From: Nitrososphaeria archaeon
GTDB lineage: Archaea > Thermoproteota > Nitrososphaeria > Geothermarchaeales > JDFR-13
Length of the DNA: 64,000 bases
Direction of reading: 5' to 3'
Assembly (NCBI GenBank): GCA_027078545.1
Contig: JALWXN010000004.1
Location: forward strand, 672,001-736,000
Shown here: positions 26,547 to 34,975 of the stretch, in pieces
How positions within the stretch are numbered: position 1 is the stretch's first letter
Layout: the number at the start of each line of letters is the position of its first letter
The notes under the pieces: generated by a model
What the model saw: the letters and a program-made list of their open reading frames with translations, nothing else
Told to the model about the DNA's origin: nothing
Database searches by the model: none
Made by a program: the position numbers and the translations under genes

Positions 26547-27992
26547 TTGAGGATAGCCGATGGGCAGGGACTCACCTTCGACGATGTACTGCTCAAGCCT
26601 AGGCTGAGCAGGGTTAGGAGCCGGTCAGAGGTCGACACCTCCACATGGTTCACGAGGCGTATCAGGCTCAACATACCCCTCGTCTCCTCACCCATGGACA
26701 CGGTTACTGAGCATATGATGGCCATCGCCCTGGCGAGGCTGGGTGGGATAGGGATTATACACCGCTTCACATCGATAGAGAGGCAGGTCGCGGAGATCCG
26801 TAAGGTGAAGAGGGCGGAGAACATCGTTATACGCGACCCCTACAGCATCTCGCCAGACGCCACTGTGGGTGAGGCCCGTAGACTCATGGAGGAGAAGGGT
26901 GTAAGCGGCCTCCTAGTAGTTGGTGAGGACGGCAGGCTGAAGGGGATCGTTACGAGTAGGGATATCCTCTTCCAGGGTGACGACGTCCCTGTGAGGGAGG
27001 TTATGACGCCTCGTGAGAGGCTTGTCGTGGCCCATGAGGAGATAGACCTCGAGTCTGCTAAGAAGCTCCTCTGGAGGCATAGGGTGGAGAAGCTCCCCAT
27101 AGTCGATGAGGAGTGGAGGGTTAAGGGGTTGATCACGGCTGCAGACATCATCAAGAAGATCAGGTATCCCAACGCGGCTAGGGATAGGAAGGGCCGTCTA
27201 CTCGTCGGGGCCGCTGTGGGTATTAGGGGAGACTATCTCGAGAGGGCGGAGAAGCTTTATGAGGCGGAGGCCGACGTCCTGGTTATAGACGTTGCACATG
27301 GCCATATGGAGCGTGCCCTCGAGGTTATCAAGGAGCTGAAGAAGGCCTTCGGGGAGGATATCGACGTGGTTGGTGGGAACATAGCCACCTATGAGGGTGC
27401 ACGTGACGTCATAGCGATGGGCTCCGACGCTGTGAGGGTCGGGATAGGCCCAGGCTCAACATGCACGACGAGGATAGTGGCCGGCGTGGGTGTGCCTCAG
27501 CTCACAGCGATTATGGAAGCCTATAGGGCCGCGTCCGAGGCCGATGTACCGGTGATAGCTGATGGCGGGATCAGGAATCCTGGGGATGTGGTCAAGGCAT
27601 TGGCCGCCGGGGCCTCGACCGTTATGATAGGTGGGCTCTTCGCGGGTACCGACGAGTCGCCGGGCCCGATAGTCCTGAGGAATGGTAAGAGGTATAAGGT
27701 CTTCAGGGGTATGGCGAGCCTATCGGCGAGGGTTGGTAAGGAGGCCGTCACGAAGGGTGTGGAGGATACGGAGGTGGCTGAGTATAGCTACTCGACGGAG
27801 GGTGTGGAGGCCTTCGTGGAGTATAAGGGGAGTGTGGAGGACATTGTTAAGAGGCTCGTGGCTGGGCTACGCTCAGGGATGAGCTACCTAGGGGCATTCG
27901 ATATTGAGGAGCTTAGGTTGAATGCAGAGTTCATCGTGATCTCCGGTGCAAGTATTAGGGAGAGCTATCCCCACGACGTCATACTCTGGTAG
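26547..27992 (+). CDS. guaB: IMP dehydrogenase
   Basis: [11 protein letters not shown] pair, [20 protein letters not shown]. Confidence 0.95.
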
Positions 27993-27994
27993 TT

Positions 27995-28300
27995 GTGATG
28001 CCCTACCAAAACCTGGTTGTGGAGGCGGATCCATCGGAGATACATAGGATTATAGAGGAGGTCTGCGAGTCGGAGAAGCTTGAGTACTCGCTGGAGTATG
28101 ACGGCGATCTCTACAGGATATATTATAGGAAGAGGATGCTATTCGTGAAGAGGGTCCAGATGGAGGTTGCACGTGTAGTCCCCCTACGCATGGGTGATGG
28201 ACGGCTACACATAGTCTTCTGGCTCAGCGACCTAGAGTCGGAGAAGAGCCAGCGCTTCTACCAGAGGATGAGGATGCTCCTAAACAGGTATATATCCTAG
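27995..28300 (+). CDS. Hypothetical protein
   Basis: Fills the gap after guaB; host-like codon usage. Confidence 0.6.
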   Translation: MMPYQNLVVEADPSEIHRIIEEVCESEKLEYSLEYDGDLYRIYYRKRMLFVKRVQMEVARVVPLRMGDGRLHIVFWLSDLESEKSQRFYQRMRMLLNRYIS

Positions 28301-29886
28301 AGAACCACCTCTGGTAGATACCTCTCCACAACCTCCTCCCTAGACTCACGCAGCATCTTGACCGCCTTAGGGAGCTTCTCAAGGATGTCCCAAGATGTCA
28401 TGCCATCCATACCCAGCTCCTCAGCGGCGAGGTCACCCGCCAGGCCATGTATGAAGACGCCGTTCTTCACCGCATCCCTCATCCTTAGGCCCAGGCCGTA
28501 CATTGCGGCAATTACTCCGTTCAACACGTCGCCAGAGCCGGCGGTCGCCATCCCGGGGTTACCAGACATGTTTATAAATACCTCTCCATCCGGCGTGGCT
28601 ATCTGTGTATGGGCACCCTTATAGACGATGTAGCACCTATTCTCCTGGGCGATCTCCCTAACCATCTCCACGGCGCTCCCCTCCAACATCTCCATCGAGA
28701 CCCTGAAGATCTTGCTGAACTCCGCCCTATGGGGAGTCAACACGGTCTCCCCACCCCTGTTCTTAACGATCTCGGGCTCCTCCCTCAGGATGTAGAGCCC
28801 ATCCCCATCCAGTATCACGGGTATATCCACCTTCTTGAAGAGCTCCCGGGCCAGCTCCTGGCTCTCACCACTCCTACCCAGGCCGGGGCCTAGGATCAGG
28901 ATGTCTATACCCGCATCCCTGATAATCTCGAGTATATGGTCGATATTCGCTGTGGATAGGCCTCCCCTACCATCATCCTCCAGTGGGTGGTAGACGATCT
29001 CTGGGGCCCTGGATGCGGCCACCCTGATCACCTCTGGCAGAGAGGCTAGCCTGGCGTAGCCGCCACCCGCCTTGAGGAAGGCGTAGGTGGAGAGTAGGGG
29101 CGCCCCATAATAGTTGGCTGCCCCACCCACCGTCAGGAGCTTTCCAAACTCCCCCTTATGCCCACTCTCCTTCCTAGGCTTTATCTCGATCGGTATGTTT
29201 AGATAGGTCCTTGTCTCGAGCTGCCTAAGGAGTGATGAGGGGTAGGCCAGCCTAGTGATGTATAGCCTCCCATTATACTCAGCCCCTGGATATATGATGT
29301 TCCCGATCTTGAGTATGCCGAGGGCGACTGTGTAGCTGGCCCTCACAGCCTCTCCATATATCTTCGCATCGCCCCCACCCACGCCCGATGGTATATCAAC
29401 CGATACAACGGGCTTCTTAGAGGCATTCACCATCTTGATAACCTCTCTGTAGAATCCCTCGACCTCCCTGTTCAGCCCAGTCCCGAATATGCCGTCGACA
29501 ATAACTGTTGACCATTCGAGATACTCCCTAAGCCTTGGTAGGTCTGGCCTGCCAAGTATCGGGGTGACCTCAGCGTCCAGCGATACCAGGACCCTATAAT
29601 ACCTCTCCGCCGGGTACCCATACCTGCCGGGGTCACCCACTATACAGATCTTGACGTCATAACCCTCCACGAAGAGCTTGAGCCCAGTGCCCAGGGCGTC
29701 ACCACCATTATTACCCGTACCCGCAAGGATAAGTACACGCTCCCTATCAAGATCAAAATTACTCCTCAGGACCCTGAAGACGGCGAGAGCCGCATTATCC
29801 ATGAGGATTAAGGGGTCTATACCCGCCTCAGCCGCCAGACGGTCGAGCTGGGCAGCATCCTCAGAGGTACCCACCAGATACTTCAA
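28297..29886 (-). CDS. nnr: Bifunctional NAD(P)H-hydrate epimerase/dehydratase
   Basis: GTGNNGGD, DGIFGTG, DIPSG, HKG, TPHRAE, GSGDVL; TTG 29886 after a GGGTGGG site is the likelier start. Confidence 0.92.
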   Translation of the reverse strand: MKYLVGTSEDAAQLDRLAAEAGIDPLILMDNAALAVFRVLRSNFDLDRERVLILAGTGNNGGDALGTGLKLFVEGYDVKICIVGDPGRYGYPAERYYRVLVSLDAEVTPILGRPDLPRLREYLEWSTVIVDGIFGTGLNREVEGFYREVIKMVNASKKPVVSVDIPSGVGGGDAKIYGEAVRASYTVALGILKIGNIIYPGAEYNGRLYITRLAYPSSLLRQLETRTYLNIPIEIKPRKESGHKGEFGKLLTVGGAANYYGAPLLSTYAFLKAGGGYARLASLPEVIRVAASRAPEIVYHPLEDDGRGGLSTANIDHILEIIRDAGIDILILGPGLGRSGESQELARELFKKVDIPVILDGDGLYILREEPEIVKNRGGETVLTPHRAEFSKIFRVSMEMLEGSAVEMVREIAQENRCYIVYKGAHTQIATPDGEVFINMSGNPGMATAGSGDVLNGVIAAMYGLGLRMRDAVKNGVFIHGLAGDLAAEELGMDGMTSWDILEKLPKAVKMLRESREEVVERYLPEVVL

Positions 29887-30234
29887 TATACCGTTCCCAC
29901 CCAACACCTCAACCAGCCTATCCATAGAGTCCCAACAAAACATTTTAAAAATAATTATCTCATCCAGGTCCATAGGTTCAACCCACGACAAAACAGTTAC
30001 ATTAACTTAACCATAAAAACCATATAGTTAATGTTAGGAATCTCTTATAGTGCATGTATATGAGAACTAAACATAGTGAATCAAGGTAGTGATGTTTAAG
30101 GCAAACACCTCCAAGTATTTACCCTTTATGTTTTTCTTCCCCTTTATAAAGGTAACTCAATTATTCGTGCATGTTAGATTGTATCTATCCAGAGCAAAGA
30201 TTTATTAGGAAATTTTTGATGTATTTTTATTGAG

Positions 30235-31029
30235 ATGATAGTTAAAGAGCGTTTGGCGAATATTGCACTCAGAGCATTTTCAGTGATAACCATCGCATTA
30301 TTACTTCTAGGTCAGTTAGCGATAGCATGGCCCCCAGCACATCAATCCTATAGCGAAGCGATAGGGGGAGTTCATATAAAGATTTATAAGTTCTATGAGA
30401 GGTCACTTCAGGAGTACCTAGTTGGAACGTGTACGTTAGGATATGCCGCAGAATTAAATGGAGTTAGTGGTATTGTAACGGCAGGACATTGTTTCGACGG
30501 GATTACTGGGAATTACGACCCTCCTGAGATATGGTGGTGGACCGTTTACCAGCCTGATAGGACAGGTCTTTATGTTGGTTCTCCATCCCATGTCTATGGT
30601 GATCTAAGCTATATAGATACTGCGTTCATACCAAGTAGCCATGTATCCCCCAGTATACTGACAAAAGATCCATATGGCAATGCGGCTGTCTTACCAGTAG
30701 AATCAATAGTGCCTTGGTCTTCTATATCTGTAGGTATGGCTGTAACTAAAACAGGTTCAAACTCTGGTGTAGAGAATGGACACGTTCAGGGATATTACAT
30801 GAATCTCTATGGATTGAAATGGGTTGTAAGGTACATTAACATGAGTGCTGTACCTGGAGATAGTGGGGGTCCAGTTTATCAAAGAACTTTAGTTAGAGAA
30901 GAGGGGTACTGGACATACCAGATTAGCTTGATAGCGATAATGGTGGCTGTGGACGGTACTTACGTCTACTCCATATCAGTAGATGGTATCCAAACTGAAG
31001 TTGGGATAGTTCCTCAAACATGGTGGTGA
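30235..31029 (+). CDS. Secreted S1 (trypsin/alpha-lytic-like) serine protease, copy 1
   Basis: Signal peptide; AIGG mature-like N-terminus; CTLG, TAGHC, YIDT, GDSGGP triad motifs. Confidence 0.85.
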   Translation: MIVKERLANIALRAFSVITIALLLLGQLAIAWPPAHQSYSEAIGGVHIKIYKFYERSLQEYLVGTCTLGYAAELNGVSGIVTAGHCFDGITGNYDPPEIWWWTVYQPDRTGLYVGSPSHVYGDLSYIDTAFIPSSHVSPSILTKDPYGNAAVLPVESIVPWSSISVGMAVTKTGSNSGVENGHVQGYYMNLYGLKWVVRYINMSAVPGDSGGPVYQRTLVREEGYWTYQISLIAIMVAVDGTYVYSISVDGIQTEVGIVPQTWW

Positions 31030-32018
31030 TCACCATGAGAAATGTCATACAAATAATAATGATGGTCCTCACTATATCGCTGCTGGTTAGCTCTTCTGCC
31101 TTAGTGGCAAGAGATGGCTTTGAGGTCTCGTATGAACCGATATACTCAAGTAACAGACTTTCAATTACAAGGGTAGTCATGGAGCTTAACATCATAGACA
31201 ACGTTGTTATCATGAGGTATGAGGATTTCTCTAGGGATCCCGTCACCCTCATAACTGGGGAGATAGCTAGGAGGACTGGAGGAGGGTTGGACGAGTCAGA
31301 CTTTAGCTGGATGATTAAGGTAGGCTATAACGATGTGTTGCGGGACCTCTACAATAGGTATCCTAGTCTCGGGGGTGTCTACCCAGTCGATAGGGACACG
31401 TTCCTACTTATGATGATGGGGAGTGACGAGTCCAAGATCCAGCGTGATGTCTTGGGCATAGCTGGCTATATGAAGTCTGGCCTCGGGCTTGGATCGATAG
31501 ATATCTACTATATCCAGCTACCCATCGACCCCTACGTGCCAGACACCGATCTCTATCACTACTCTGAGCTGTACTCCAGCCTAATGGCTAGCGGTGAGAT
31601 ACCCGAATATCTCTTCATGTTCACGATAACGAATGGCGTGCCCGAGTTCGGGGCCTGGCTCAGCTGTGAGGTTGACGGCACCAGGGTTACACATAACTAC
31701 TATGAGGTCGTCAATGGGGTTAGGAGCCTAGCCGACAAGATGTTCGGGAAGGATTCTAAAGTGGTTCTACACGTTGTGTCGGTGTGCGGTGGCCTGGAGC
31801 CCCTAGTAAACCCTGGGTCTAGCCAGGCAGTATCGATAGAGGACCAACTAGCCCCCAGTTTAGAGGAGGAAAAGGAGACCGAGGCCTCAACAGAGAGTGG
31901 ATCATCACACATGGCAGGAGAGATAGCCAGTCTCTACCCATACATAACACTACTCATAGCACTATCCATAGCTATCCCAGCAGCATACCTACTCCTCCGC
32001 AGAGTATCAGGAATCTAA
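31020..32018 (+). CDS. Secreted, C-terminally anchored protein of unknown function (protease partner 1)
   Basis: Signal peptide, acidic/Ser linker, C-terminal TM with RR tail; start overlaps the protease stop. Confidence 0.8.
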   Translation: MVVITMRNVIQIIMMVLTISLLVSSSALVARDGFEVSYEPIYSSNRLSITRVVMELNIIDNVVIMRYEDFSRDPVTLITGEIARRTGGGLDESDFSWMIKVGYNDVLRDLYNRYPSLGGVYPVDRDTFLLMMMGSDESKIQRDVLGIAGYMKSGLGLGSIDIYYIQLPIDPYVPDTDLYHYSELYSSLMASGEIPEYLFMFTITNGVPEFGAWLSCEVDGTRVTHNYYEVVNGVRSLADKMFGKDSKVVLHVVSVCGGLEPLVNPGSSQAVSIEDQLAPSLEEEKETEASTESGSSHMAGEIASLYPYITLLIALSIAIPAAYLLLRRVSGI

Positions 32019-32309
32019 TTCCCATCCCTCATCCTTTTTACCATCTTTGGATGAGCGGTTAGCCGTAGTTCAATGCTAGAGACGGCCTGTTCAGCAAATA
32101 TGACAATATATGGATAGATATCGTCAATACCATGCTTTCCAAATTAGGAGATCGAGGATAAGATTGCTTAGGGGTAAATACATAGATTGGTCTTTTGGGG
32201 TAATGTCTCCCATAGTGTTTATAAATAAAACATGCTTATTGATACATCCTAACATGTAGTAACAAGGTGTTAAAACTTATTAGGTCTTAATAGAGATATT
32301 ATTTTTGAA

Positions 32310-33110
32310 ATGGTAGTTAAAGGGCACAATAGGAATATCAAGCTGAAAATATTGTCACTGGTGACGATCCCAATGCTGTTACAGGTGCAGCTGATCCCGT
32401 TGGTATGGCCGCCCGCTTGGTACCCCCGTAGCGATATCATTGGAGGATTGGCGATTGGAATCTACCTGTACTATGATAGAACAATGGAAGAGTATCCGAC
32501 TTCTATATGTACAGTAGGATATGCGGCTATAAAGGACGGAGTTGAAGGATATGTAACCGCGGGACATTGTTTCGACGGTGTTACGGGCTATTTCAATCCA
32601 CCAAATATGTGGTGGTGGAAAGTCTACCAACCACCTAATGGATCAAACATCCGCTACGTCGGTTCACCATCCCATGTATATGGGGACGCAGACTATATCG
32701 ATACAGGGTTCGTCCCCTATAGCAATGTAAAGCCATTAGTGCTAACCCTAGATGCTCTTGGTAATCCGTTTATGGCACCAGTGAAGAGAATGATCCCATG
32801 GTTTGAGATCACTAGGGGTATGGAAGTCTATAAGACTGGATCCATCTCGGGGGTTACCTACGGCGAAGTTGATAACAAATACATCACCTTCTTAAGGGTT
32901 AAATGGGTTGTAAAGATAGTAGGTGAACCGTCGACTGGTGGCGATAGTGGCGGTCCAGTATATGTTAAGAAACCAGTAAGAATCGATTGGTTCTGGACAT
33001 ATGAGATCCACTTAGTCTCAATCGTCTCTGGTGGCACTCCATTTTCGACATACACAATATCAGTCCATGGAATTTTCCTTGAAACTAACATTCAGCCCAT
33101 TAGGTGGTGA
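32310..33110 (+). CDS. Secreted S1 serine protease, copy 2
   Basis: Paralogue of 30235: IIGG, CTVG, TAGHC, YIDT, GDSGGP. Confidence 0.85.
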   Translation: MVVKGHNRNIKLKILSLVTIPMLLQVQLIPLVWPPAWYPRSDIIGGLAIGIYLYYDRTMEEYPTSICTVGYAAIKDGVEGYVTAGHCFDGVTGYFNPPNMWWWKVYQPPNGSNIRYVGSPSHVYGDADYIDTGFVPYSNVKPLVLTLDALGNPFMAPVKRMIPWFEITRGMEVYKTGSISGVTYGEVDNKYITFLRVKWVVKIVGEPSTGGDSGGPVYVKKPVRIDWFWTYEIHLVSIVSGGTPFSTYTISVHGIFLETNIQPIRW

Positions 33111-34138
33111 GGTGTATGATCGCGGCGAGGGTGGGCATAATAGTGTTATGTCTAATTCTAGTAGGGTCTCTGGTGGTTACTGACGCTAAGCCCAGCGGTG
33201 TCAGCTATCAAACAATAATTATCAACTCGCGTTATGAGGTGACTAGGGTTCATATGCCCTTCGAGTACGTGGATGATATGCTTGTTTACAATGAGCTGAT
33301 GTTAGATGCATATGTATTGGTCAATGCCAGTATAGCTAATAAAAGTCAGCATAAGCCTTTCCTAAGGTTGATCGAGGAGGATCCGATTTTCTATGGGTTA
33401 CTAAAGGACAAATTCATGCAGGAGAGAATAGTCTTGTTCCCTAACATGAATGTGTTCTGGGTAACTCTTGACAGCTTCTACGCTGAAGTGATGAATGCGG
33501 ATGAGGATGAGGCTCTGGAAGAGGTTTTGAGGCTAGCTGGCTATCTATGGTCTCTGCTCCGCTCTAATAAGATTCATGTAGATAGGGTTAGGGTGTACTA
33601 TCTTCAGATACCGTTGGATCCGTACATACCTAGTGAGATGGAGATGTACTATGCGGATAAGTACTTCGGGTTGATGGACAACGGCTCTATACCCGAGTAC
33701 GTCTTTATGTTCGGCTTCCTATATGGGCGTGATGCCATGATACCTCAGTTCGGTGGCTGGCTTAGCTGTAAGTTTGACGACACCAAGGTGTTGTATACCC
33801 GTCAGGAGGTCCTGTCGGGTATCCGCTCCCTGGCGGATAGGATGTTTGGTGAGGGATCCCCAATAGTTGTGATCATCACATCAGAGTGCCCCGAGATAGC
33901 GCCATTACCAGCTAGATTAAATGACGTTCAGGGGATGGATACTCAGGTCACCCCCAATACCACTCCTGGTGATGGTAATACCGAGCCTATAGCCAGGGAT
34001 GGTAGGGATGTTGAGCGTGTGGATACGGGTCTTGAGGTTGGCGGGGTCGATGAGAGCTATCTACTATCCTTCCTGGCCGCTGTGGCTATAGTGTTGCTAA
34101 CCACTTTCGTGCTCCTGGGTAAGAGGCTTGGTGGCTAG
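33104..34138 (+). CDS. Secreted, C-terminally anchored protein (protease partner 2)
   Basis: Paralogue of 31020: YY.Q.P.DPY.P, IPEY.FMF, FG.WLSC, RSLAD.MFG; C-terminal TM. Confidence 0.8.
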   Translation: MVRCMIAARVGIIVLCLILVGSLVVTDAKPSGVSYQTIIINSRYEVTRVHMPFEYVDDMLVYNELMLDAYVLVNASIANKSQHKPFLRLIEEDPIFYGLLKDKFMQERIVLFPNMNVFWVTLDSFYAEVMNADEDEALEEVLRLAGYLWSLLRSNKIHVDRVRVYYLQIPLDPYIPSEMEMYYADKYFGLMDNGSIPEYVFMFGFLYGRDAMIPQFGGWLSCKFDDTKVLYTRQEVLSGIRSLADRMFGEGSPIVVIITSECPEIAPLPARLNDVQGMDTQVTPNTTPGDGNTEPIARDGRDVERVDTGLEVGGVDESYLLSFLAAVAIVLLTTFVLLGKRLGG

Positions 34139-34560
34139 GGTTTCTGTACTACCCCCTCCCCCTCTTTATCTCCTCCCCTCTCGGTGAATAGGTTCTTAGC
34201 CTCCTCGGTGGATAGTAGATAGATTATCCCCAGGTTTATCACTATGAGTATGAAGCCTTGGGGGAGGAAGAGGGTAGCGACTATCCCAGCAGTTGCCGCC
34301 AGGGCGATGGCTATGTATCTCCCCCACCACCTCCTGAGTATTAGCCCTACCCCCGCGGCAACGGAGAGGCTGTTTATGAAGAGGATTATTATGATGTCGA
34401 GTAGGTAGAGGAGGGGCTGGTCCCTCTCCACTGGGAGGCCGGGCATCCTAGAGCCGGTTATGAGTGAGTATGCCAGGACACCTAGGTTTGCGGCTCCCCA
34501 TACTAGGTAGACCACGCCTAGACCCTGTATAACCGTCTTCAACGCCATGCTACTCCCCAC
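34135..34560 (-). CDS. Small 4-TM membrane protein
   Basis: Hydrophobic; GL..RRWWGR and YL...E.K..F pattern. Confidence 0.7.
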   Translation of the reverse strand: MGSSMALKTVIQGLGVVYLVWGAANLGVLAYSLITGSRMPGLPVERDQPLLYLLDIIIILFINSLSVAAGVGLILRRWWGRYIAIALAATAGIVATLFLPQGFILIVINLGIIYLLSTEEAKNLFTERGGDKEGEGVVQKP

Positions 34561-34975
34561 CCATCGTCACATCCTCACCAGGCTCCTCCAGGAGGTTGAA
34601 GAACCTCTTCACCCCTGGGCTGGCGAGGTATGCAAGGGGTATTAGGAGGAGGCCTGCAAATACTATGTTGCCTATACTGAATATACTTGTGAAGAGTATG
34701 TTGAGTATCCCCGTGAGTATGAGTAGGACCTCCCCATACCAGGACCATATCCTCCCGTGGTAGAGGCCATAGCTCATCATGAATCCCAGGCCCGAGAGGA
34801 TCATGATCGTGGTGGATATGTATAGGACCTGTACAAGCCCAACTTCACCGTTATCTACCATCGTTATGGGGAGGAGTAGGGTTGTTATGGCGGTGAAGAA
34901 TAGTAGGGTGGAGAAGGCTATCTGTATGAGTGACAGGACCACTATGCCTGTTGGCCTCTCGACGCCCCTGTCCAT
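34550..34975 (-). CDS. Small 4-TM membrane protein, similar architecture to its neighbour
   Basis: RPTGI, GL..GRIWSW, YL..PGVKRFF. Confidence 0.7.
   Translation of the reverse strand: MDRGVERPTGIVVLSLIQIAFSTLLFFTAITTLLLPITMVDNGEVGLVQVLYISTTIMILSGLGFMMSYGLYHGRIWSWYGEVLLILTGILNILFTSIFSIGNIVFAGLLLIPLAYLASPGVKRFFNLLEEPGEDVTMGGE

Follow-up and report, generated by a model that had tools for sequence, protein, structure and literature searches.

The DNA examined here, referred to as the window, comprises 64,000 nucleotides (nt) of a Nitrososphaeria archaeon (assembly GCA_027078545.1, contig JALWXN010000004.1, positions 672,001 to 736,000 of the forward strand). Positions 30235-34138 of the window hold two paralogous two-gene operons, all on the plus strand: in each, a gene for a short secreted serine protease is followed by a gene for a membrane-anchored protein, termed here the partner. 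An initial annotation, made from the sequence alone, had recognized this unit as occurring twice, and all four open reading frames are confirmed. Between the copies, the proteases are 49% identical (E 1e-87) and the partners 33% identical (E 4e-43), far beyond chance. To judge from these comparisons the tandem unit is a duplication, and an old one, because synonymous divergence (dS) between the copies is saturated (1.6 and 3.2).

Proteases, partners, and their junctions

Protease 1 (30235-31029; 264 residues, aa) and protease 2 (32310-33110; 266 aa) share an N-terminal order: a basic stretch; a 20-residue hydrophobic segment; a conserved WPPA; about eight residues; and IGG. In copy 1, the hydrophobic signal peptide covers residues 6-35, and the WPPA spacer leads to IGG at 43-45; in copy 2, the signal peptide covers 12-33, WPPA 33-36, and IGG 44-46. 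In the alignment this IGG corresponds to I-x-G-G, where the mature enzymes of MEROPS S1E (alpha-lytic protease/streptogrisin) begin. At most 13 residues separate signal peptide and IGG, where S1E membership entails an N-terminal pro region of about 70-170 aa. Nor is a pro region hidden upstream, as the stop-to-stop frames reach just 5 and 12 codons beyond the protease ATGs.

The catalytic triad is intact in both copies: His85 (30487-30489), Asp128 (30616-30618), and Ser210 (30862-30864) in protease 1; His86 (32565-32567), Asp131 (32700-32702), and Ser213 (32946-32948) in protease 2. The TAGHC and GDSGGP motifs are present, and the triad is invariant in an alignment of 21 homologues. Also invariant are Cys67 and Cys87 (here and below, residue numbers are those of copy 2 unless stated), which match the His-loop disulfide Cys42-Cys58 of chymotrypsin numbering and would presumably form the same bond. 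The signal peptide, spacer, IGG, and triad had all been read correctly in the initial annotation, as had a difference beside the catalytic serine (SAVPGDS in copy 1, PSTGGDS in copy 2). Because this difference places AVPGDS or STGGDS at the rim of the S1 pocket, the substrate specificities of the two paralogues may differ.

Family assignment comes from a profile of seven short-protease members. Searched against the PDB, its best 22 matches are all S1E enzymes, including streptogrisin B (SGPB; E 7e-10), Nocardiopsis protease, SFase-2, SGPA, alpha-lytic protease, Glu-specific protease, and Thermobifida protease A. Single protease sequences fall below curated family thresholds (Pfam Trypsin, 14 bits against a cut-off of 20.6; nothing in NCBIfam), and none of the four window proteins has a significant match in Pfam, NCBIfam, or PADLOC. 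By profile and alignment, the proteases are a very divergent, pro-less, catalytically intact branch of S1E.

Each partner begins with a signal peptide that looks cleavable. A folded ectodomain of about 235 residues follows, then an acidic linker of 40-50 residues rich in Ser, Thr, and Pro, and finally a C-terminal transmembrane (TM) helix. In partner 1 (31035-32018; 327 aa), the signal peptide (residues 1-26) and ectodomain are followed by the conserved tail Pro256-Leu257 (31800-31805), an acidic, Ser-rich linker, and a TM helix at about 296-324. Partner 2 (33116-34138; 340 aa) has a signal peptide at 1-27; an ectodomain (27-262) of three alpha/beta sub-domains, with the strand Phe197-Met-Phe199, a helix bearing Tyr179 and Tyr183, and Cys218 and Cys258; the tail pair Pro263-Leu264 (33902-33907); a disordered linker (262-312); and a TM helix (313-339). 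A secreted, C-anchored protein with two cysteines and the motifs DPYxP, IPEYxFMF, FGxWLSC, and RSLADxMFG had been described from the start, and the motifs are indeed conserved. The partner is not joined covalently upstream of the protease; its gene lies separately, downstream of the protease gene, and has a Shine-Dalgarno site and a signal peptide of its own.

At both protease-partner junctions lies a GGTGGTGA element, complementary to the genome's own 16S 3' end (GGATCACCTCC) and most plausibly a Shine-Dalgarno site contained within the final protease codons. In unit 1, GGTGATC (31025-31031) lies within the last codons and stop of protease 1; in unit 2, AGGTG (33102-33106) lies within the last codons of protease 2, 9 nt before ATG 33116. 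Translational coupling through overlapping genes had been proposed. The coupling element stands, and overlapping starts are possible (ATG 31020 for partner 1, GTG 33104 for partner 2), but the favoured starts, ATG 31035 and ATG 33116, each lie 5 nt past the protease stop codon. We favour these because the database gene calls (327 and 340 aa) and the Shine-Dalgarno spacing agree.

A (T/C)TTATTAGG box precedes both protease ATGs at exactly 25-nt spacing: TTTATTAGG, which is like a TATA box with a B recognition element, at 30201-30209, and CTTATTAGG at 32276-32284, both on the plus strand. If these boxes are promoters, as their sequence and position suggest, each unit would have its own promoter and a leaderless mRNA.

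Pairing, loss, and divergence in related genomes

Directly behind every short pro-less protease inspected lies a gene for a protein of 300-390 aa that has a signal peptide and, at its C terminus, a TM helix. This covers nine loci from about seven lineages (the two window copies, L003, L020, L022, L034, L047, L050, and L051). The downstream gene starts anywhere from a 14-nt overlap to a 13-nt gap relative to the protease gene. Across these loci, identity falls to 27-33% for the proteases and to 18% for the partners. The initial annotation had proposed gene-pair co-occurrence as a check, and the result is in its favour: a partner-type gene is present each time, and partner homologues do not occur mostly without the protease.

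The evidence that the downstream gene belongs to the partner family varies by locus. L003 is the orthologous unit in a sister species. Genome G011 has two different units, L034 (267 + 390 aa) and L047 (248 + 318 aa, 4-nt overlap), whose downstream genes clearly belong to the family: the alignment extends over their whole length, and the tail motif is present in both. Equally clear is the downstream gene of a metagenome contig (L050; 269 + 369 aa), which matches the full profile at E 4e-4. L020 has an ATGA overlap, and its downstream fragment aligns with the partner N terminus. At L022 (13-nt gap, secreted fragment) and at a second metagenome contig, L051 (14-nt overlap), the likeness to the partner family is architectural only.

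About 20 related proteases, found in Nitrosopumilus-like archaea and in bacteria, are of a long type: 130-250 aa, built as a coiled coil plus a beta-alpha-beta unit, precede the catalytic domain, and no partner gene was seen in the available flanks of their loci. Some of these are S1E-like proteases of about 400 aa (L035-L046, L012, L015, and L017; for example L038:1369-2580, minus strand) in Nitrosopumilus- or Nitrosarchaeum-type archaea and one Anammoxibacter metagenome-assembled genome. Their N-terminal extension of 190-240 aa comprises a signal peptide, a coiled coil of about 100 aa, and a beta-alpha-beta unit. No Pfam family names the long-type extensions, and PF02983, the alpha-lytic pro region model, does not match them; the coiled coil plus beta-alpha-beta arrangement may be an undescribed type of pro region. 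The relatives of the window genome are labelled Candidatus Geothermarchaeota, and the class also includes the genomes labelled Nitrosopumilus and Nitrosarchaeum.

The four-gene block has a G+C content of 0.45, against 0.55-0.58 in the flanking genes. Recent horizontal transfer was considered for this reason and is ruled out by dS: the unit differs from that of the sister species by 0.42-0.68, matching the flanking genes (0.43-0.53), and so is old in this lineage. (The sister species is represented by L001-L006 and L009, one population, counted once.) The ratio of nonsynonymous to synonymous divergence (dN/dS) against the sister is 0.30 for protease 2, 0.32 for partner 2, and 0.24 for partner 1; it is about ten times lower in the flanks (0.014-0.057). 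Protease and partner rates are matched and high, and the partner diverges faster than the protease. Pro regions likewise diverge faster than protease domains (Nixon et al., bioRxiv 10.1101/2020.08.30.274340).

The three lineages seen each have a different set of these genes. The window has both full units. In the sister species, protease 1 is deleted: the same promoter-like box, at its 25-nt spacing, and the first protease codons remain, fused to an intact partner 1, so that the fusion begins MLVKGH, where the two window proteases begin MVVKGH and MIVKE. The dN/dS of 0.24 belongs to this orphan partner 1 and indicates that purifying selection maintains it. (In L005, partner 1 only looks truncated; a scaffold gap of 100 N accounts for this, with no deletion.) In the third lineage (L023:1-1707), the contig begins in the apparent last codons of a protease gene, followed by a AGGTGGTGA junction. 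Its partner 1 has lost about 45 internal codons, including the motifs of the interface described below. Protease 2 is precisely absent with its Shine-Dalgarno site kept, and partner 2 stops four residues past Pro-Leu, and is naturally without linker or anchor. In each lineage, any protease that remains has at least one intact partner with it.

The neighbouring genes place the units in context. Upstream in the window lies a divergently transcribed NAD(P)HX-repair gene (28297-29991, minus). An IMP dehydrogenase gene lies 1-2.5 kb from a protease-partner unit in three places: the window (26547-27992), G011 (L034:3-347), and the unrelated metagenome contig (L050:889-2364). The units at these three places are only 27-34% identical, and the position looks like an old conserved chromosomal site. 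Between the IMP dehydrogenase and NAD(P)HX-repair genes of the window is a 101-aa open reading frame (27995-28300; 100 aa in the sister species) without a Pfam match on record. Downstream of the units are two overlapping 141-aa paralogues with four TM helices (34135-34975, minus), kept in L003 and L023. They are probably not members of the module, because they are absent beside the G011 units. G011 (L034, L047, L048, and L027), although labelled as the same genus, has about 35% G+C against 53.5% for the window, and it contains two very divergent protease-partner units and a third partner fragment. Its genus label or bin may deserve a check.

The partner family and its predicted complex

The partner family is almost an orphan. 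A profile search of 1.84 billion representative proteins returned three partner entries: the two window copies and a distant 347-aa protein, P0011. Word-indexed searches added no relatives beyond close ones, and a metagenome scan with partner patterns found none; one partner alignment (A5) was too divergent to serve as a query for that scan. None of eight family members has a Pfam match at E up to 1, and there is no relevant PDB profile match. A weak partner match at L026 proved spurious, as it falls inside an Old-Yellow-Enzyme-like reductase. P0011 (L018:10001-11044) keeps the signal peptide, both cysteines, the Pro-Leu tail, and the C-terminal TM helix, and sits between an ABC transporter operon and a metallo-beta-lactamase-fold gene. 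A G011 partner fragment beside an assembly gap has no protease directly upstream.

Only Asp129, Tyr195, and Pro263 are invariant across the eight members. All eight carry a tail motif, C-x(4-6)-P-[L/F], directly past the last strand, with Leu or Phe following Pro263. A Pro-Leu or Pro-Phe pair is of the kind used in standard chymotrypsin-type test substrates. The two partner cysteines are either both present or both absent (by our reading, P0015 and the L051 partner lack the pair), which fits a disulfide at the base of the tail.

AlphaFold2, given the eight sequences, predicts a confident partner core (predicted local distance difference test, pLDDT, about 85-95 over residues 30-257) made of the three alpha/beta sub-domains. 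Foldseek found no PDB match to this model at E up to 1e-3, and a wide VIA structure search returned generic alpha/beta modules with a top Z of 5.7. When the Foldseek list was realigned with VIA-align, the alpha-lytic pro region (4pro_C) ranked second, with Z 5.5 and a root-mean-square deviation of 5.6 Å over 129 of 154 residues. This is the longest alignment in that list and the sole one to span two sub-domains: model residues 71-262 lie on residues 15-166 of the pro region (Pro), reaching its C-terminal residue 166, which occupies the active site. The likeness is a consistent but weak hint, not evidence of homology.

A controlled complex prediction was made with protease 2 (residues 43-266, 21-row alignment) and partner 2 (residues 24-262, 8-row alignment). 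The interface score, ipSAE, was 0.91, 0.83, and 0.90 (median 0.90), against 0.00 for the best of three controls. Among solved complexes, 58 of 80 reach the mark used, as do 2 of 110 mismatched pairs; these counts are only a rough calibration here since the alignments were our own. At least 87% of contacts are common to the runs, and partner pLDDT is at least 88. The protease chain reaches pLDDT 89-90 in these runs, versus a mean of 51 when modelled alone from five sequences; in that model, of the two beta-barrels of the S1E fold, only the C-terminal one was folded, and the model was too poor for use.

All predicted protease contacts but one lie within the C-terminal barrel. The lowest-error contacts join protease residues 190-195, in the hairpin 188-205 that forms the predicted docking site, to partner residues 197-201, the conserved FMF strand of EYxFMF. 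Protease 190-195 aligns with alpha-lytic residues 117-122, where the 118-130 hairpin starts. In alpha-lytic protease, Pro-catalysed folding depends critically on this hairpin, which joins Pro in a five-stranded sheet (PMC2829044; Nixon et al., bioRxiv 10.1101/2020.08.30.274340). The predicted interface also includes protease residues 210 and 240-243, which by our mapping are chymotrypsin residues 192 and 214-217 (the substrate-binding strand), and partner residues 258-262, the final five of the construct, directly before the invariant proline and Leu264. The prediction supports direct binding in a mode like that of a pro region.

A candidate pro-region analogue and known systems

In the textbook case of alpha-lytic protease, the native state is out of reach unless a folding catalyst is attached covalently, and this pro region has been shown experimentally to act in trans. 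The initial annotation had suggested that the partner is a pro-domain split off from the protease and supplied in trans. The trans part fares well: the proteases are S1E-like and pro-less, the pairing is conserved beyond one genome, and pro-like binding is predicted. The split-off part does not, at least as a claim of homology. No sequence or profile similarity links the partner to any pro region or N-terminal extension, by Pfam, PDB profile, or hhalign. Against 13 N-terminal extensions of archaeal (thaumarchaeal) proteases, hhalign gave a probability of 0.14%, which is not significant; the one stretch that it aligned, a helix and the last strand before the tail, is merely a curiosity. (PF02983 also missed a Streptomyces precursor, so the sensitivity of that model is low.) The partner may descend from a pro region or be an independent invention.

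These results suggest a working model in which the partner is a separately encoded, membrane-tethered analogue of a pro region that acts as inhibitor, foldase, or both. We hold this to be about evenly balanced between right and wrong. Each operon encodes a secreted S1E-type protease without a covalent pro region, together with a C-terminally anchored partner co-translated at 1:1 stoichiometry. The partner would capture the protease at the outer face of the membrane, binding its C-terminal beta-barrel as the alpha-lytic pro region does: the conserved EYxFMF edge strand would add onto the C-terminal hairpin, while the C-x(4-6)-P-[L/F] tail, which leads into the anchor linker, would run into the substrate cleft. 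The newly exported protease would thereby be capped and silenced at the cell surface, and its folding may also be catalysed. Release could follow a cut at or after the Pro-Leu tail or in the linker, or degradation of the partner. Since binding of the pro-region kind also inhibits, the partner could in addition shield the surface of the cell that makes it; orphan partners would then be kept after loss of their protease.

A more ambitious version is tentative, and we lean against it. It proposes a natural "split" pro-enzyme, in which the intramolecular catalyst and inhibitor was replaced, in one archaeal lineage, by a tethered protein of independent or unrecognizably remote origin that reproduces pro-region binding. 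The tail would be cut by the very protease that it holds, and a single partner would combine folding, latency, release, and self-protection.

Several points count against a pro-region analogue. The fold likeness to 4PRO is tied with that to generic alpha/beta modules (Z 4.7-5.7), and 4PRO is absent from the top 50 of the wide VIA search; the missing sequence similarity described above belongs here as well. The ipSAE score is the model's own confidence and could reflect recall of alpha-lytic:Pro complexes, which are present in the PDB, although the partner does not resemble Pro in sequence. On the partner, conservation is no higher at the predicted interface than elsewhere in the ectodomain (mean 0.39 vs 0.46), and the modelled construct ended at residue 262, one residue short of the Pro-Leu pair. 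The complementary distribution of N-terminal extensions and partners counts as about one evolutionary event, because the short proteases are essentially one clade: eight of the nine form a well-supported group (97/100), with the ninth unplaced on a very long branch. P0011, though intact, has no protease within 10 kb. The Phe94-cisPro95 turn, reported as conserved in kinetically stable proteases (PMC2829044), is not evident in our reading of the protease alignment, so a folding catalyst may be unnecessary. Pro-less alpha-lytic homologues that fold alone are known, though these lack the triad.

The strongest competing account, improbable but still to be reckoned with, is that the partner is an obligate private foldase only: a steric chaperone needed once per protease molecule after export, with no protective or inhibitory role. 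The protease has no pro region while its long-type relatives keep an N-terminal extension, the coupling is tight and 1:1, and the predicted contact falls on the folding-critical hairpin. There is also precedent in the lipase-specific foldase Lif, which is membrane-anchored and is classed as a steric chaperone with the alpha-lytic and subtilisin propeptides (PMC3352829, PMC7046727). However, a clientless foldase should decay unless it serves protease 2, and the sister lineage keeps partner 1 intact (dN/dS 0.24) after deletion of protease 1. This retention argues against a role in folding alone, as do the solo partner P0011 and the known pro-less homologues that fold by themselves. It is easy to explain for an inhibiting binder, which might cross-serve the other protease or protect against the enzymes of neighbours.

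A surface-display role is quite unlikely. Here the partner would tether an active protease non-covalently, keeping digestion products near a cell that has no outer membrane; the TM helix, the long acidic stalk, and the predicted binding all suit such a role, but an interface that takes in the substrate-binding strand (240-243) and residue 210 on the oxyanion side would block the bound enzyme, and the L023 variant of partner 2 has no anchor at all. Least likely is that the two proteins do not interact, the partner being an unrelated surface protein or substrate that is merely co-expressed with an autonomous protease: pro-less homologues do fold within seconds to minutes (Nixon et al.), the interface is not enriched in conserved residues, and the partner has no recognizable family, but adjacency and tight coupling persist while the sequences diverge so far, and the complex scores 0.90 where three controls score 0.00.

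If the pro-region analogue is borne out, it would offer a ready-made two-component, membrane-tethered system for studying kinetic stability, would reveal how, in the absence of a periplasm, a dangerous secreted protease is held latent on the surface of the organism that makes it, and would assign a role to a wholly unannotated protein family. As the pair is small and poses little difficulty for expression, the idea can be put to a direct test. Strain variation and the fast evolution of the locus hint at an ecological role, for example in predation or competition, with protective orphan partners.

The initial annotation recognized no described archaeal system of this kind, and we found no description of such a pair in the literature, nor of any natural system in which the pro region is split from an alpha-lytic-type protease. 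Three known systems provide the closest comparisons.

Lif (LipH) of Pseudomonas and Burkholderia is a functional parallel only. Its fold is unrelated and largely helical, and it is anchored at its N terminus; the partner has no Lif family match in Pfam or NCBIfam scans. Lif is a dedicated membrane-anchored steric chaperone encoded in one operon with its secreted client, which, unlike the client here, is a lipase (PMC3352829, PMC7046727, PMC13381987).

The No-pro class of alpha-lytic homologues is defined by 0-20 residues between signal peptide and protease domain (Nixon et al., bioRxiv 10.1101/2020.08.30.274340). By this definition the archaeal proteases are No-pro members of the same fold family, and 6XHZ is a weak match of the protease profile. 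The No-pro homologues N2-N4 of Actinobacteria (PDB 6XHZ) lack the catalytic triad and fold alone (Nixon et al.), and no partner gene is reported for them. The archaeal proteases, in contrast, keep His, Asp, and Ser, and are accompanied by a coupled partner at every short-protease locus inspected.

The alpha-lytic and streptogrisin precursors (S1E; PDB 4PRO, 3PRO, and 2PRO) are the closest of the three, as the profile puts the archaeal catalytic domain in their group. Alpha-lytic Pro is an N-terminal segment of its precursor. The partner, by contrast, comes from a gene of its own downstream of the protease and carries a signal peptide. It has one more sub-domain at its N terminus, as well as a long stalk and a membrane anchor at the C terminus; sequence comparison reveals no homology with pro regions, and the host is an archaeon. 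Even so, in the predicted complex the partner docks on the matching C-terminal hairpin with its tail in the active-site cleft. Its model shows a weak two-domain fold likeness to Pro, and, like Pro, it evolves faster than the protease that it accompanies.

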